From: Flavobacteriales bacterium
GTDB taxonomy: Bacteria; Bacteroidota; Bacteroidia; Flavobacteriales_D; Sanyastnellaceae
Reading direction: 5' to 3'
Assembly (NCBI GenBank): GCA_044338665.1
Contig: JBIIWZ010000010.1
Span: forward strand, 4,447 to 68,446
DNA: 64,000 nt
Notes under the pieces: generated by a model
The model's database searches: none
Told to the model about the DNA's origin: nothing
What the model saw: the letters and a program-made list of their open reading frames with translations, nothing else
In this document: in pieces, positions 33,945-54,752 of the stretch
Layout of the letters: each line of letters starts with the position of its first letter
Position numbering within the stretch: the stretch's first letter is position 1
Position numbers and translations under genes: made by a program

Positions 33945-34210
33945 AAAAGTACAGAAATATTCTCCCCTACTAACCCCAAACACCATCAATTCTCTTCTTC
34001 CCAAAAAACTGCGCAGTTTTCTCGAGCTTCATTTTTGAAAAAAATCATATTTCACAAGGGGTTTGGCAGATTGGGACCGGAGAAAAATCCGCACAAATAC
34101 CTAGGAACTTCGTAATTGGAAAATCGGAGATTTTATTCCTGCTGCTTAATTCCTCCCGATAGCTATCGGGATCATACTTCCTAATTCATAATTGGAACTA
34201 CGTTGTTGTT
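33945..34210 (-). repeat. leader module copy D (contains the palindrome at 34003-34020)
   Basis: The first ~76 nt are identical to copy C (aaaagtacagaaatattctcccctactaaccccaaacaccatcaattctcttcttcccaaaaaactgcgcagtttt). It also shares aaaaatccgcacaaatacctaggaacttcgtaattggaaaatcggagattttattcctgct. Confidence 0.8.
34003..34020. promoter_or_regulatory. palindrome AAAAAACTGCGCAGTTTT (copy P1)
   Basis: Perfect 16-bp palindrome at 34005-34020 within module D. Confidence 0.5.
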
Positions 34211-34747
34211 CTTTATTTTTCTGGAATGAAACTGAAATTCTAATCTCAATTCTTTAAAAATTTTCAAACTAGAAAAACTTTTCCAAAGAGAATTACACCA
34301 AAGAACAGTAAACCCGAAAAAAAGAAATAAAAAATAAACGCCTTGCCATCGAAATGAAGCCTTCTTTTTCTCATTAGTTTTAAGAATCTGTTCTTGTAAA
34401 ATATTGAAAAATAGTTAACTATAAAAAAGGTAAGTAAAAAGTTAAAAATCCAGAGAAAGCTGTATTCAAATATTGCCCTGGAAAAAAATCAATTTTTTTA
34501 ATAGCGGATTAAATTTCACAAATGAACCAACTAAAAAATAAATAGACACCAAATTAAAACCTTGGGCTATTGAGAATGCAACTAACAGAGTTATCATTTT
34601 TTCCCTGTTGGATTTTCCACTATTAGTTTTTTTTTGCTTTAGCAATTCCGTCTAACCATATTTCATAATACCAATTCATGTTTTGTACTTGTATCCTAGA
34701 CGATCTATTATTCTCATTTTTATTTTCTGCTTACTTTAACTATCTAT

Positions 34748-34918
34748 TAAAAGATATAAGCGTTGAATATAACAAATAAAACCGCTGTTACTATTCCCGC
34801 CAAAGCCACTGTCTTCATTTGTTTTCTTTTATCAGTATTCTCTTTACTATTTTTTGATTTCATTGAGACGTATTCAAACATCACAATTGTGCAGATCAAA
34901 AACGAAAGAATGAACATG
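34748..34918 (-). pseudogene. truncated paralog of the 36335..36781 membrane protein (last 56 codons only)
   Basis: Encodes MFILSFLICTIVMFEYVSMKSKNSKENTDKRKQMKTVALAGIVTAVLFVIFNAYIF. The C-terminus of 36335..36781 reads MFILSFLICTIIMFVYASYKPTKSNENVAKRKYMKTVALAGIVTAVLFVLFSAFLF. Confidence 0.6.
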
Positions 34919-34963
34919 ACGATTATTATTTAGTTACCTATAAAAATAACTTACTCAAAGGCA

Positions 34964-35167
34964 CTATTCCCAGGGAAATCTATCAATTCTACGAAGAATA
35001 GCCGAGCCTCCCCCATGTTCCGAAGATTCAGGATACTCGTTTATCCATTTTTCGCCTGTCTTTACGTCAACATAGAAAACAACCCAATTCTCTTTGTTGA
35101 CTTCTTTTAACGTTTTTATTTTATCGTAATATAACTTTCCTTCTTCGTATATATCAGTGTCTTTCAT
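34964..35167 (-). CDS. Imm27-like small immunity protein
   Basis: 67 aa. GEKWINEYPESSEHGGGSAILRRI resembles, from memory, the Imm27 motif W-x-L-x-YP-x-S-E-x-HGGGPP-x-L. It is shorter than typical family members. Confidence 0.45.
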   Translation of the reverse strand: MKDTDIYEEGKLYYDKIKTLKEVNKENWVVFYVDVKTGEKWINEYPESSEHGGGSAILRRIDRFPWE

Positions 35168-35229
35168 TATTGAGAAATCGGAGATTTTAATACTAACTTA
35201 TCGTTTAGATTTTGAAACGAGATTCGATT

Positions 35230-52084: not shown

Positions 52085-52148
52085 AGAAATCAATTTCACT
52101 TATGGCGAAGAGGAAAAGAATAATAATTGGCGTATAACAATAGCAAAC

Positions 52149-53555
52149 ATGAACATGACCCGACTTACCACCACATTCATATTATTCTTTTTGACGATTG
52201 CGACATTCGGACAAACTCGAAAAGATCTTTTATACTCGAAAATTTATTTAAAGGGAACCTACTTAGATAATAAATATGAAATTACGGGATTTCAACTAAG
52301 ATCGGATTTTTCAGACACCGTTATCGATAACCTAAAATATCGCAAATTCCAAACATCAGACTTTACAGACTATTATGGAAAGCACACAACAAAAACTTTC
52401 TATGAATCTTTTGAAAAAGGTAATTATTGCTTATTAGATCATAACGAGGTCGTAATTCATAAAATTAACTTTCAAGAGATAAACGAACAGAAAGGAATAA
52501 TTTACGGAAGAGAAGCGCAAATTTCACTAGAATTCATAAATAAATCCAAGAATTTCCCTTTGGATAGCGCAGTTCATACAGATAAAACACCAAGGAGATA
52601 TTATCTGAAAGATGATTCAGAAATATATCTTGTAATTATTCCTGAATTGCTTTCACTCGTTGTATCAAGCAATGGAGAATTTTATTCCAAACAGCTGTTT
52701 GATCAGAAATACGATGATATAACCACAGGATTGCGCAATAATTACAAGGCTTCAACAAAATTTGACATAAATAAAGATGATGAAATCCAATTACTTTATG
52801 TAAGAAAATGGATGAACGATACAACAAATCTGGAGGAGCACACGGATAAACAATTTAAAAATTTAAAGTATCAAGGCGACACCATTATCAATGAATTTAA
52901 AAATCTAAAATTCGAAATTGAGGGTTATAGTTATTTGAACGGTTCTTATGACAGACCGGAAGAGCTTTTGGTTCCAATCTCTGATAGCGGATATTTCATT
53001 GGAAATCTATTCATCCCTTTCAAAGAGTATAGAACAGAACTCAAAATTATTGAAACAGAAAATGGTAATGACTTCTTAATTCAAGGTATTGTCTGCGATA
53101 CAATTAACGGAAGTACTTATCAAAAAATCATTCAAATAAACAGTAGGCCATATACAATTAACATTTTACCATTCTTCCCCGTTTCTTATGCTGAAGTTGG
53201 GAATGTACATGGTGACATAACTTATAAAAAAATCAAAGGAGTTGAAAATGGCAGTAAACGTGAAAGAACTTATATAATAGACAGAAATAATATTAGAGAC
53301 ATAATAAATAAAAAGAAAAACCAGGTAGAGGTAGTTATTTACTTTATGGAAGAGGCGAAAGTTGAAATCGAAATTAAGGACTATAAAACCCATAAAACCA
53401 TAGCTTCAAAAAGAGCAAAATCAAAAAAAGGAATAAATACGTTTATTATTCGATCTGGGAATTATGAGAAAAATGAAGAATATGAAGTTGTAATAAACTA
53501 CAAATGCAATCAGAGTTCTGGCGGTTTTTCGAATAGCGTGAAGATAAAATATTAA
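52149..53555 (+). CDS. hypothetical secreted protein (468 aa)
   Basis: Signal peptide MNMTRLTTTFILFFLTIATFGQ. Confidence 0.55.
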   Translation: MNMTRLTTTFILFFLTIATFGQTRKDLLYSKIYLKGTYLDNKYEITGFQLRSDFSDTVIDNLKYRKFQTSDFTDYYGKHTTKTFYESFEKGNYCLLDHNEVVIHKINFQEINEQKGIIYGREAQISLEFINKSKNFPLDSAVHTDKTPRRYYLKDDSEIYLVIIPELLSLVVSSNGEFYSKQLFDQKYDDITTGLRNNYKASTKFDINKDDEIQLLYVRKWMNDTTNLEEHTDKQFKNLKYQGDTIINEFKNLKFEIEGYSYLNGSYDRPEELLVPISDSGYFIGNLFIPFKEYRTELKIIETENGNDFLIQGIVCDTINGSTYQKIIQINSRPYTINILPFFPVSYAEVGNVHGDITYKKIKGVENGSKRERTYIIDRNNIRDIINKKKNQVEVVIYFMEEAKVEIEIKDYKTHKTIASKRAKSKKGINTFIIRSGNYEKNEEYEVVINYKCNQSSGGFSNSVKIKY

Positions 53556-53681
53556 TAGCGCACTTATTTCCAACTCCGTTTAAACAACGAAGTTCGAATT
53601 ACACATTAGGAATAAACCCTCGGGATTTCGCAAAAAAAGAGTCCAAAAAACTTTAAATCAAAGACAAAAAGAAAAGTACCA

Positions 53682-54254
53682 ATGACAAAAAATATAACCA
53701 TCCTTCTTCTAATTCTCTCAACTCAGACTTTGGGGCAAACTCTTAAAAATCCCGTAGCATCAAAAACGTATAAAAATAATTTAAAAAGCTCAGTTCTCCA
53801 TATTAAAAACCCGTCTCCAATCCTGAGCTATCCAGATTTTCTTTCATATTTACCTAAAGTCAAATATGAGTTCGGAAGTGTTCAAAGCATTAATGTCGGA
53901 TTAACAACAATTGATTTTGATGGGGAACTTCCACAAAGGTATGATGGTCCCTTCATAGAAAGTGGAATCACTCTTTCCGAACCTCGTCATCTGATGTGCA
54001 ATAAAGTTGGATATGAATATTTCAGCATGGTGATGTGGGGCGGAAGACTCAATGTAGTTCACTATACTGATTTTCACAGTAACCAATTTTTTGTCCGACC
54101 CGAAATAGGGTACTCTCTCCTAAGTCTAGTAACCCTTACTTACGGTTATAATTTCAAGTTACCTGGTAACTCAAATTTGATTAAACCAGGAAGTATCTAC
54201 TCTATAAATCTTGCCCTTCCTATTTACAAAAAGGAATATCGTGATATGGAATGA
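53682..54254 (+). CDS. hypothetical secreted protein, possibly a small beta-barrel
   Basis: Signal peptide present. Alternating-hydrophobicity strands, e.g. FFVRPEIGYSLLSLVTLTYGYNF. Confidence 0.5.
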   Translation: MTKNITILLLILSTQTLGQTLKNPVASKTYKNNLKSSVLHIKNPSPILSYPDFLSYLPKVKYEFGSVQSINVGLTTIDFDGELPQRYDGPFIESGITLSEPRHLMCNKVGYEYFSMVMWGGRLNVVHYTDFHSNQFFVRPEIGYSLLSLVTLTYGYNFKLPGNSNLIKPGSIYSINLALPIYKKEYRDME

Positions 54255-54399
54255 GAATTATTATGCGCTTCGCGGACTGTTTCAACAACTCTGTTCCAAC
54301 AACGTAGTTCCCTAAGTAATTGCAAGGATTTTTTCCACCCCATCTGTCCTACTCTTTCTTGATTTTTTTCTAGAATTAGAAACAGAAAGACAAACGGAA

Positions 54400-54752
54400 T
54401 GAGTCGAGTTGCGTGAGGGATAGCAGTGGAAAGCCCGGAGCGGATGGAAACCGCGAGGACTTGGAACGAATAGCCCGACCCGAAGGGGCACGCCCAACTA
54501 AGTCTTAACGACGAATGTACTTCGTACGAATGCTTCGCGAATGTCTTCGACTTTTCCAACAAGGAAGTTCCCTAGGTATTTGTACGGATTTTTTCTACTC
54601 TCCCTTCTCCTCTATTGCCTGTAAAACCTGAAATACTTCAGAAAACCGCCCCTAAAAAACTGCGCAGTTTTTTAGATCGGCGAAAATTGACTGAATCTAG
54701 GGTGAAATGAATTGGGGATTGAAGTACTTTTAATATGCGTAATTGAACTTCG
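54400..54752 (+). repeat. leader module copy B, preceded by a GC-rich 12-nt-periodic patch
   Basis: 54510-54752 matches module A. Segment 54400-54497 (gagggatagcagtggaaagcccggagcggatggaaaccgcgaggacttggaacgaatagcccgacccgaaggggcacgccc) is strikingly GC-rich for this island. Confidence 0.8.
54653..54674. promoter_or_regulatory. perfect 22-bp palindrome TAAAAAACTGCGCAGTTTTTTA (copy P5)
   Basis: Read directly from the sequence. Confidence 0.55.

Follow-up and report, generated by a model that had tools for sequence, protein, structure and literature searches.

Rigidly spaced, probable promoter modules before different gene blocks of a variable low-GC Flavobacteriales island, and a candidate two-component system for their control

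The window analysed here is a stretch of 64,000 nt from a Flavobacteriales bacterium (GCA_044338665.1, contig JBIIWZ010000010.1, positions 4,447-68,446 of the forward strand), and it contains a low-GC island in which four full copies and a shorter fifth copy of one intergenic module are found. G+C content is 40-46% over positions 1-28,000 and 32-39% from about 28.7 kb to the window end, except in a segment that encodes a histidine kinase and a response regulator (41.5%). A 70-nt direct repeat, with copies at 28592-28661 and 60975-61044 that are 90% identical, encloses all five modules within the low-GC stretch. The repeat-bounded stretch holds about 40 open reading frames (ORFs), the majority without a Pfam match above threshold and many with signal peptides, lipoboxes or membrane helices; the Pfam matches in the island are to Imm-NTF2-2, TonB_C, M48 and PrsW peptidases, DUF6438 and Peptidase_C92.

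Read toward the genes that follow, the module has a fixed order, namely a 22-nt box (CTAGGTATTTNTNCGGATTTTT), 60 nt, a 20-nt palindrome (AAAAAACTGCGCAGTTTTTT), 51 nt, an octamer of the form TAnnTTTA (which we call the -7-like box), a 5' untranslated region (UTR) and an ATG. Box, palindrome and -7-like box together make up a rigid unit, about 185 bp long, that precedes unrelated genes for secreted proteins. At up to two mismatches the palindrome occurs five times in the window against 0.00 expected in 100 dinucleotide-preserving shuffles, so that the five copies listed in an earlier, sequence-only reading of this DNA are real. Allowing three mismatches on the 16-mer core brings in no extra copy in the window, and the 8-mer core occurs outside the modules only once, within the kinase gene. 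The 20-mer dyad is perfect in three of the five copies and imperfect in two (34003-34022 and 39641-39660), and the two longer palindromes of that reading, at 42925-42948 and 54652-54675, are indeed extended perfect dyads but are 24-mers (12+12), not merely 22-mers. The box, which had been described as GTTCCCTAGGTATTT-TACGGATTTTTT, is equally real: there are five exact matches against 0.01 expected, and in every window copy it starts exactly 82 nt before the palindrome. Its conservation, which equals that of the palindrome, had not been singled out in that reading. Two further parts once assigned to the module fare less well. The GAATG array is absent at 33945-34210 and stands alone at 41959-42031, and the downstream GGGATTGAAGTACTTTTAAA is present in two copies but is not general, the common feature of forward copies being TAnnTTTA 51 nt after the palindrome. 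Over longer alignments 42783-43057 and 54510-54784 are 88% identical, as are 33942-34151 and 39289-39498. A profile made from all copies returns the four full modules together with the shorter fifth at 39628-39744 (minus strand) and, as a decayed box, 54303-54344; the 28-kb core-genome part of the window is free of copies.

Module M1 (33944-34104, minus strand) has its box at 34083-34104, a palindrome at 34003-34022 with one mismatch (...TTTTCT), the -7-like box TACTTTTA at 33944-33951 and a predicted transcription start near 33939, and it heads a minus-strand block starting with coding sequence (CDS) 33436-33885. On the same strand M2 (39291-39451; box 39430-39451, perfect palindrome 39350-39369, TACTTTTA 39291-39298, predicted start near 39286) heads the block 34964-39285, whose first lipoprotein gene likely starts at the MQKCC... 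methionine near 39237. The plus-strand modules are M3 (42845-43005; box 42845-42866, palindrome 42927-42946, TACTTTTA 42998-43005, predicted start near 43010), which heads the block 43082-54254, and M4 (54572-54732; box 54572-54593, palindrome 54654-54673, TACTTTTA 54725-54732, predicted start near 54737), which heads the block 54835-58868. M5 (39641-39798, minus strand) is the copy nearest the two-component operon described below. Its box is at 39721-39742, and its palindrome at 39641-39660 carries a G-to-A change (CTGCACAG) that breaks the dyad, the ortholog being perfect in L047, a related strain that is 98% identical and is represented by an 878-kb scaffold. (L-numbers, L002-L052, denote related stretches from metagenome-assembled genomes (MAGs), species genomes and metagenome contigs; the related loci were examined over 2-20 kb each and the own genome over 64 kb.) M5 has no forward -7 box, and the plus strand carries TAGATTTG at 39791-39798, exactly 48 nt from the box and toward the operon, for which it predicts a transcription start near 39803. 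Thus the claim that every copy is oriented toward a co-directional ORF holds for the forward modules, but the palindrome of M5 faces the neighbouring module, away from the nearest operon.

Incomplete copies accompany the full modules. The degenerate box at 54303-54344 (plus strand; CTAAGTAATTGCAAGGATTTTT) has four mismatches and no palindrome after it, and it lies at a synteny breakpoint relative to L047. Both fragments that the sequence-only reading had proposed represent the promoter-proximal part of an M3/M4-type module: the one at 32938-33002 (minus strand; GAAGTACTCTAAA) lies upstream of CDS 32215-32799 and has neither box nor palindrome, and the one at 58872-58902 (plus strand) is decayed and lacks the -7-like box.

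Next to M5, a plus-strand operon encodes a two-component system. Its first gene (39874-40524) specifies a polytopic membrane protein of 216 amino acids, a candidate sensor partner, and its stop overlaps the start of the kinase gene (40521-41303; 260 amino acids), whose product has HisKA_3 and HATPase_c domains of the NarX/UhpB/LiaS type, a single membrane helix at the N-terminus and no extracytoplasmic domain. The response regulator (41284-41931; 215 amino acids from the ATG at 41284) belongs to the NarL/FixJ family, with an N-terminal Response_reg receiver (PF00072, E = 9.5e-20) and a GerE/LuxR-type helix-turn-helix (HTH), and is the proposed binder of the palindrome. It scores under the cut-off of all named NCBIfam families, and no other DNA-binding protein was found among those ORFs of the repeat-bounded island (28.7-61.0 kb) that were scanned. 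Downstream of the operon, past an intergenic array, follows the gene for a second polytopic membrane protein (42104-42763, plus strand; 219 amino acids), which is conserved beside the two-component system in L004, L005, L032 and L047.

The association between this system and the module recurs in relatives. Kinase and regulator, at 85-99% identity by tblastn, adjoin a module at eight loci (the window, L004, L005, L026, L033 and L047-L049), in L036, L041 and L045 the start of the same operon is visible before the contig ends, and a module stands beside the operon in every contig that has a kinase-regulator ortholog and enough flank. Operon and module-driven gene diverge in every case, and in eight loci a sequence TA[GA]ATTT[GT] is found on the operon side at a distance of exactly 48 nt from the 22-nt box, so that the ancestral unit looks like a divergent control region of about 200 bp between two -7 boxes (48 + 22 + 60 + 20 + 51 nt). 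One module serves both directions in L004, L026 and L041; the window, L005, L033, L036, L045 and L047 have an operon-proximal copy without forward -7 box, a short-period array and a second complete module. This arrangement resembles divergent autoregulated two-component promoter regions in that the regulator operon lies opposite a target gene across a common control region, about 200 bp long in this case, but here copies of that region, without the operon, are present elsewhere in the island and, in some strains, as a tandem duplicate beside the operon.

Regulator orthologs are found at 80-98% identity, with the next matches at 40% and none between among 5.8 billion proteins, and the 40% identical homolog P0005 has an unrelated context and no module. 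The HTH recognition helix or region is near-invariant among the orthologs, paralleling the invariant palindrome. For the 80% ortholog, L052, the contig ends 120 nt upstream of the operon; these 120 nt (L052 1-120) carry a different dyad, TACGCAG-AA-CTGCGTA, which has the CTGCG/CGCAG core in common with the palindrome, but in everted order. The linkage to modules, the narrow co-distribution and the near-invariant helix together lend comparative support to the earlier suggestion that the LuxR/NarL-type regulator of the island may be what binds the palindrome.

The kinase-regulator segment (39874-42763) has a core-like G+C content of 41.5% and the surrounding cargo one of 32-35%, and across species-level MAGs neighbouring genes are 25-65% identical as compared with 85-99% for kinase and regulator; these contrasts imply that the regulatory core and the cargo have different histories. 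The lipoprotein gene at 28756-29421, on the far left of the island, has homologs of 25-29% identity in L004 (406-1059), L026 (2235-2888), L036, L041 and L045, where they are the first gene of the two-component operon and adjoin the module, so that the place of this gene relative to the operon has moved.

A search of related genomes for the module, as had been advised, yielded 25 distinct copies in freshwater metagenomes and MAGs of Flavobacteriales/Bacteroidota. With the palindrome as query, 185,579 species genomes gave 30 stretches, among which the Flavobacteriales/Bacteroidota MAG stretches L002, L005, L010, L013, L014, L021 and L026 have the box at the same offset and L004 has a degenerate box; other palindrome matches, in other phyla and singly in three other Bacteroidota MAGs, lack it. 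A scan of metagenomes with the box added nine further module-bearing contigs, and in public genomes and metagenomes alike the palindrome lies at exactly +82 after every Bacteroidota-type box. Nine subfamilies can be told apart among the 25 copies; over 185 nt they show 42-80% identity to one another, have zero indels and keep box and palindrome invariant. The palindrome is a perfect 20-mer in nearly all of them, the exceptions being L033/L036 (GAAAAA...), L037 (CGCGG) and L045 (CGATG). In copies this old, the exact spacing and the two invariant blocks would need purifying selection on function. Exactly 51 nt beyond the palindrome, TAnnTTTA is present in every one of the 20 complete distinct forward copies, as TACTTTTA, TAAATTTA or TAGATTTA depending on the subfamily, and where the first ORF is callable its ATG lies 5-102 nt past the -7-like box.

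All forward copies face the next gene, and what that gene encodes varies widely. The first genes after 23 modules belong to nine families with no detectable mutual similarity, nearly all beginning with a signal peptide or lipobox, and in other MAGs they carry a type IX secretion system (T9SS) C-terminal sorting domain. One upstream half (B-type, spacer ATTTACTCC...) precedes five different first genes, and its downstream partner is an A-, B- or C-type half, the switch occurring at the palindrome.

What kind of promoter would this be? In Flavobacterium psychrophilum the sigma-A box TAnnTTTG lies at -12 to -5 (PMC9723704). If the -7-like box is given this position, the palindrome comes to lie at -83 to -64 and the 22-nt box at about -165 to -144, and the predicted site centres are about -73.5 for the palindrome relative to the outward promoter and about -71.5 for the box relative to the operon promoter. 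The octamer TAnnTTTA fits TAnnTTTG at 7 of 8 defined or free positions, its last base always being A, and the start sites given above are predicted from it; the operon-side box in the window (TAGATTTG) matches TAnnTTTG perfectly. The modules resemble Bacteroidetes sigma-A promoters (-33 TTTG / -7 TAnnTTTG) in having TAnnTTTA at a fixed place before start codons, with implied 5' UTRs of a plausible length, mostly about 15-100 nt, and differ from them in the final A for G and in having no TTG at 19-21 nt. Conserved 25 nt upstream of the -7 box is TTTGG/ATTGG, or TCTAG in the M3/M4 type. Both the final A and the missing -33 element would fit a weak, activator-dependent promoter. A scan for sigma-70 promoters was uninformative (40 found against 40.4 expected), this being the wrong promoter type for Bacteroidetes, and a survey of -7 boxes upstream of core-genome ORFs was uninformative because starts taken from longest ORFs are unreliable. 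Sigma-54, extracytoplasmic function (ECF) sigma and CTnDOT-type core readings of the 22-nt box gave no match by eye.

Our analysis makes it reasonably probable that one activator-dependent promoter unit has been copied and reused before different blocks of a variable low-GC island, with the island regulator acting on the palindrome. RNA polymerase with the Bacteroidetes primary sigma factor would recognise TAnnTTTA and start transcription about 63 nt past the palindrome. The kinase, having no sensor domain of its own, would probably sense an envelope-associated signal through the co-transcribed membrane protein or proteins and phosphorylate the regulator, a dimer of which would then occupy the 20-bp palindrome about 73 bp upstream of weak promoters. 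The bound regulator would switch on all blocks together and possibly its own operon too: the operon-proximal copy would be the upstream half of a divergent promoter, where a box near -71.5 would allow autoregulation. The promoter part of this proposal is well supported; the anatomy, the rigid spacing, the conservation across taxa, the reuse before unrelated genes, the linkage to the two-component system and the lack of RNA structure were all observed. That the island regulator binds the palindrome we infer only by comparison of sequences, and the start sites, activation rather than repression and the role of the box are likewise put forward as predictions. Of the shared promoter/operator cassette imagined in the sequence-only reading, the promoter gains comparative support from TAnnTTTA at +51 in 20 of 20 forward copies, nine non-homologous first genes and no RNA fold or covariation, but the predicted site near -73.5 fits an activator and not an operator that overlaps the promoter. 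The name "leader" fits poorly as well, since from the position of the -7 box the modules would be upstream promoter regions, not transcribed leaders.

A number of observations weigh against the proposal. It gives the invariant, asymmetric 22-nt box no binder, and the nine bases at the 3' end of the box (CGGATTTTT) agree with a palindrome half-site (CAGTTTTTT) at 7 of 9 positions, a weak likeness in AT-rich DNA; the exact 60-nt spacer, kept in subfamilies with about half of their bases in common, may hint faintly at a phased second contact. The predicted starts depend on a -7-like box that ends in A and not in the consensus G, alignments inspected by eye have no TTTG/TTG at the usual 19-21 nt upstream of it, and operon-proximal copies keep the palindrome but have no forward -7 box. 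L028 (Crocinitomicaceae) has palindrome and promoter half without the box. The linkage is visible only on contigs that are long enough, and two of the five module-bearing MAG species fall outside the regulator count. Finally, since the palindrome is invariant, covariation between regulator and site is ruled out as a test.

Which other explanations could account for the same pattern? It is fairly unlikely, though the contender we take most seriously, that the modules are regulated promoters whose palindrome, box or both are bound by a regulator encoded elsewhere, the two-component system being merely a member of the regulon. The binder of the palindrome is after all predicted by comparison, the asymmetric box is as conserved as the palindrome, which makes at least one further binding activity likely, and the survey for regulators reached 64 kb in the own genome and 2-20 kb at related loci. 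Nevertheless, the kinase-regulator pair is the sole regulator seen, adjoins a module in every long enough contig and is limited to the same narrow clade as the module, and a perfect dyad of about 20 bp is the usual form of target for dimers with a GerE-type HTH (NarL, DosR, TraR, LuxR). Should the regulator not bind, we would be left with a conserved promoter repeat of modest interest. The modules might instead act as RNA, either as a transcribed 5' leader or attenuator or through the palindrome as a bidirectional intrinsic terminator, and here the A6/T6 flanks around the dyad are superficially terminator-like, the M3 and M4 copies fold to -8.4 kcal/mol with their flanks, and short-period arrays with UUCG-like loops lie upstream. 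We consider this very improbable. The core stem has eight mostly A-U pairs with two G-C, the 20-mer folds to only -3.0 kcal/mol and is not listed in the terminator scan, and M5 and M2 have no co-directional gene upstream to terminate, all while a -7-type box sits at a fixed distance downstream of the palindrome. The consensus fold of 11 diverse copies reaches -4.77 kcal/mol with 0 compensatory pairs, so that sequence is conserved and not pairing, and a search of the whole window against Rfam at gathering score gave no match, hence no family for the module. On these grounds both the intrinsic terminator (-3.0 kcal/mol, absent from the terminator scan) and the riboswitch or cis-acting RNA leader (no compensation, weak fold, no Rfam match) were rejected.

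Could the modules be primarily joints for recombination, forming a cassette platform like that of integrons or rAID arrays or anchoring homologous recombination, with promoter activity secondary? The strain L047 lacks window 34151-39289 (5.1 kb bounded by M1 and M2), carries other genes in place of 47230-54312, a stretch that ends at the decayed box, and differs in the genes after M4, so that the strain differences coincide with modules; moreover, the upstream and downstream halves are mosaic, switching at the palindrome, and one module type precedes five first genes. The flanking genes on one side are diverged alleles (73-98% amino acid identity between window and L047, against 98-99% for the operon), and together with the strain differences at module edges this suggests that homologous recombination on conserved sequence suffices, with no need for a dedicated recombinase. 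Yet no integrase or recombinase domain was found in ORFs of at least 100 amino acids over 28.7-64 kb, five modules for about 40 genes are not one per cassette, and no inverted repeats or target duplications surround the modules. A perfect dyad without an asymmetric spacer is atypical of the core sites of tyrosine recombinases, the mosaic is what ordinary homologous recombination at invariant stretches of 20-22 nt would give, and the fixed distance to the -7 box and strict gene-ward orientation are features of promoters. Thus we regard recombination as the primary role as quite improbable. A reading that combines both roles is only a little less doubtful and remains speculative: a recombinase-free platform for gene capture and expression, in which box and palindrome are at once two-component binding sites and homologous joints for swapping blocks or module halves. 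If true, a newly acquired secreted, lipoprotein or immunity-like gene would come at once under the same signal-dependent promoter, the island would be a functional analogue of integron Pc/attI or rAID arrays built from a regulated promoter, and the phased pair of box and palindrome (81 bp centre to centre) would mark a looped complex of several regulator dimers. As for a selfish repeat without any regulatory role, of the kind of miniature inverted-repeat transposable elements (MITEs) or repetitive extragenic palindromes (REPs), the multiple intergenic copies per genome and the association with other short repeats are all that speak for it. There are no terminal inverted repeats, the forward copies all point at the next gene, copies of 42-80% identity retain two invariant blocks and exact spacing, and the core-genome part of the window, 28 kb, has zero copies, which leaves it scarcely credible. 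MITE and inverton were rejected since the four module regions have no common flanking inverted repeats.

Returning to an activator-dependent promoter unit, we note how it compares with known systems. Like GerE/LuxR-type operators (the lux box, tra box, NarL 7-2-7, DosR, VraR/LiaR), it has a perfect dyad of about 20 bp, with a CTG...CAG / ACT...AGT core, upstream of genes, and a receiver-GerE regulator encoded alongside. A quorum-sensing lux-box system was rejected, the regulator having a receiver and not an autoinducer-binding domain at its N-terminus: in place of the acyl-homoserine-lactone receptor of lux-type systems there is a phosphorylation-type response regulator. In lux-type promoters the site is centred at -42.5, as compared with the predicted -73.5 or so here. 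For the combination of A6/T6 arms and CTGCGCAG core we found no matching published site, and the literature searched yielded neither the palindrome core in a bacterial context nor a NarL-type palindrome described in flavobacteria. In rAID-1 arrays a recombinase stands at the head and repeats lie between the genes (bioRxiv 10.1101/471110). The island is like rAID-1 (Bacteroidales) and integron Pc/attI systems in being a low-GC, strain-variable array of small genes with repeated intergenic sequences and one Imm-NTF2-2 gene, and unlike them in having no XerD-type recombinase, repeats that head blocks and not every gene, an embedded two-component system and, relative to rAID-1, cargo mostly without an immunity-family match. 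Membership of either class was rejected because no recombinase was found among the ORFs of at least 100 amino acids at 28.7-64 kb and the modules number five as against about 40 ORFs. Reused or "putative mobile" promoters are highly similar upstream regions found before non-homologous genes, within and between genomes (PMC3575422). The module shares with them the occurrence of the same upstream region before non-homologous genes, but it carries its own regulator site, travels with a cognate two-component system, is confined to one island and keeps its 185-nt indel-free geometry over nine diverged subfamilies. It thus offers a natural example of promoter reuse, one regulated promoter over unrelated secreted-protein genes in a strain-variable island. 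To our knowledge almost nothing is known of two-component control or activator-dependent promoters in uncultured freshwater Flavobacteriales, for which the module, kinase and regulator supply a defined candidate cis-element, sensor and regulator; being short, with invariant landmarks and rigid geometry, the module would be tractable for studying activators that work with the unusual Bacteroidetes sigma factor, and it might be used as an inducible promoter part.

Other intergenic repeats include short-period arrays. A CGAATG array at 42766-42840 (plus strand) lies just upstream of the M3 box, and related copies are at 54509-54567, 39528-39603 (minus strand) and 41959-42031, the last without a module. 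Other MAGs have GATTGAT-, GAGGG- or GGAACTTCGTTGTT-type arrays in place of CGAATG. The core genome, too, has long tandem arrays between its genes, with a 12-nt period of constant AAGGT plus seven variable bases, some then followed by the reverse complement ACCTT (2421-2563, 4562-4656, 14081-14267, 16686-16839 and 26833-26862, no strand assigned). The CGAATG array, which also occurs alone at 41959-42031 and is one of a broader class, therefore does not define the module. Within this solitary array 41999-42014 matches the terminator consensus, so that an insulating role is possible, and array tails end in GATTTT or CTTTT; CGAATG arrays may possibly be insulators or terminators, and with one exception the short-period arrays fold no better than shuffles (z -2.9 to +0.9). 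A second island-specific repeat, with core AAGAAATTGGCGGTTCRGTGATTAA (3 matches against 0 expected) and sometimes then a hairpin TCCCGATAGCTATCGGGA, occurs at four junctions other than the modules, at 31467-31508 and 32133-32174 on the minus strand and 55703-55799 and 57187-57283 on the plus strand, always between two co-directional genes and in their orientation. Internal promoter, processing site and terminator are all conceivable roles for it.

The island itself shows possible traces of its arrival. The left copy of the 70-nt repeat is a candidate boundary or attachment-site (att) remnant; neither copy is assigned a strand. Adjoining the left copy is a sequence resembling a tRNA 3' end (about 28573-28600, minus strand), with T-arm GGTTCGAATCCC...CCGCCA, acceptor strand and CCA. 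ARAGORN finds no intact tRNA or tmRNA, relaxed thresholds give implausible pseudo-tRNAs only, and a permissive Rfam search near the island ends gives only a cross-hit to a tRNA-derived plastid element. The repeats and the tRNA-like end look as if they were att remnants left by one integrated element or by several in tandem, and an integrase may lie beyond 64 kb. The 878-kb scaffold of L047 stops about 144 nt past the point that aligns to window position 28692.

As for cargo, CDS 30045-30542 is the sole island ORF matching a polymorphic-toxin immunity family (Imm-NTF2-2, E = 2.9e-24), a hint that some cargo may protect against interbacterial toxins. PADLOC gives no anti-phage defence match for nine large island proteins and only one match, to SoFic (E = 1.7e-18), for a Fic protein whose ORF comes last in the repeat-bounded stretch. 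Behind the island comes a series of genes of mobile-element or defence type (59355-63758), which encode this Fic protein, an AbiEii toxin, an AbiEi/DUF6088 antitoxin and an HTH_17 excisionase-like protein, the last at the edge of the window. An 84-nt direct repeat has 90% identical copies at 59275-59358, across the 3' end of the Fic gene, and at 62595-62678, within the AbiEi-like gene and close to its 5' end; it may reflect tandem related elements on the right-hand side of the island. Finally, 34210-34960 is AT-rich and gene-poor. Within it, 180 nt at 34741-34920 duplicate the 3' portion of gene 36335-36781 in decayed form (83% identical), to judge from the sequence a pseudogene remnant, lying in the block that is missing from L047.

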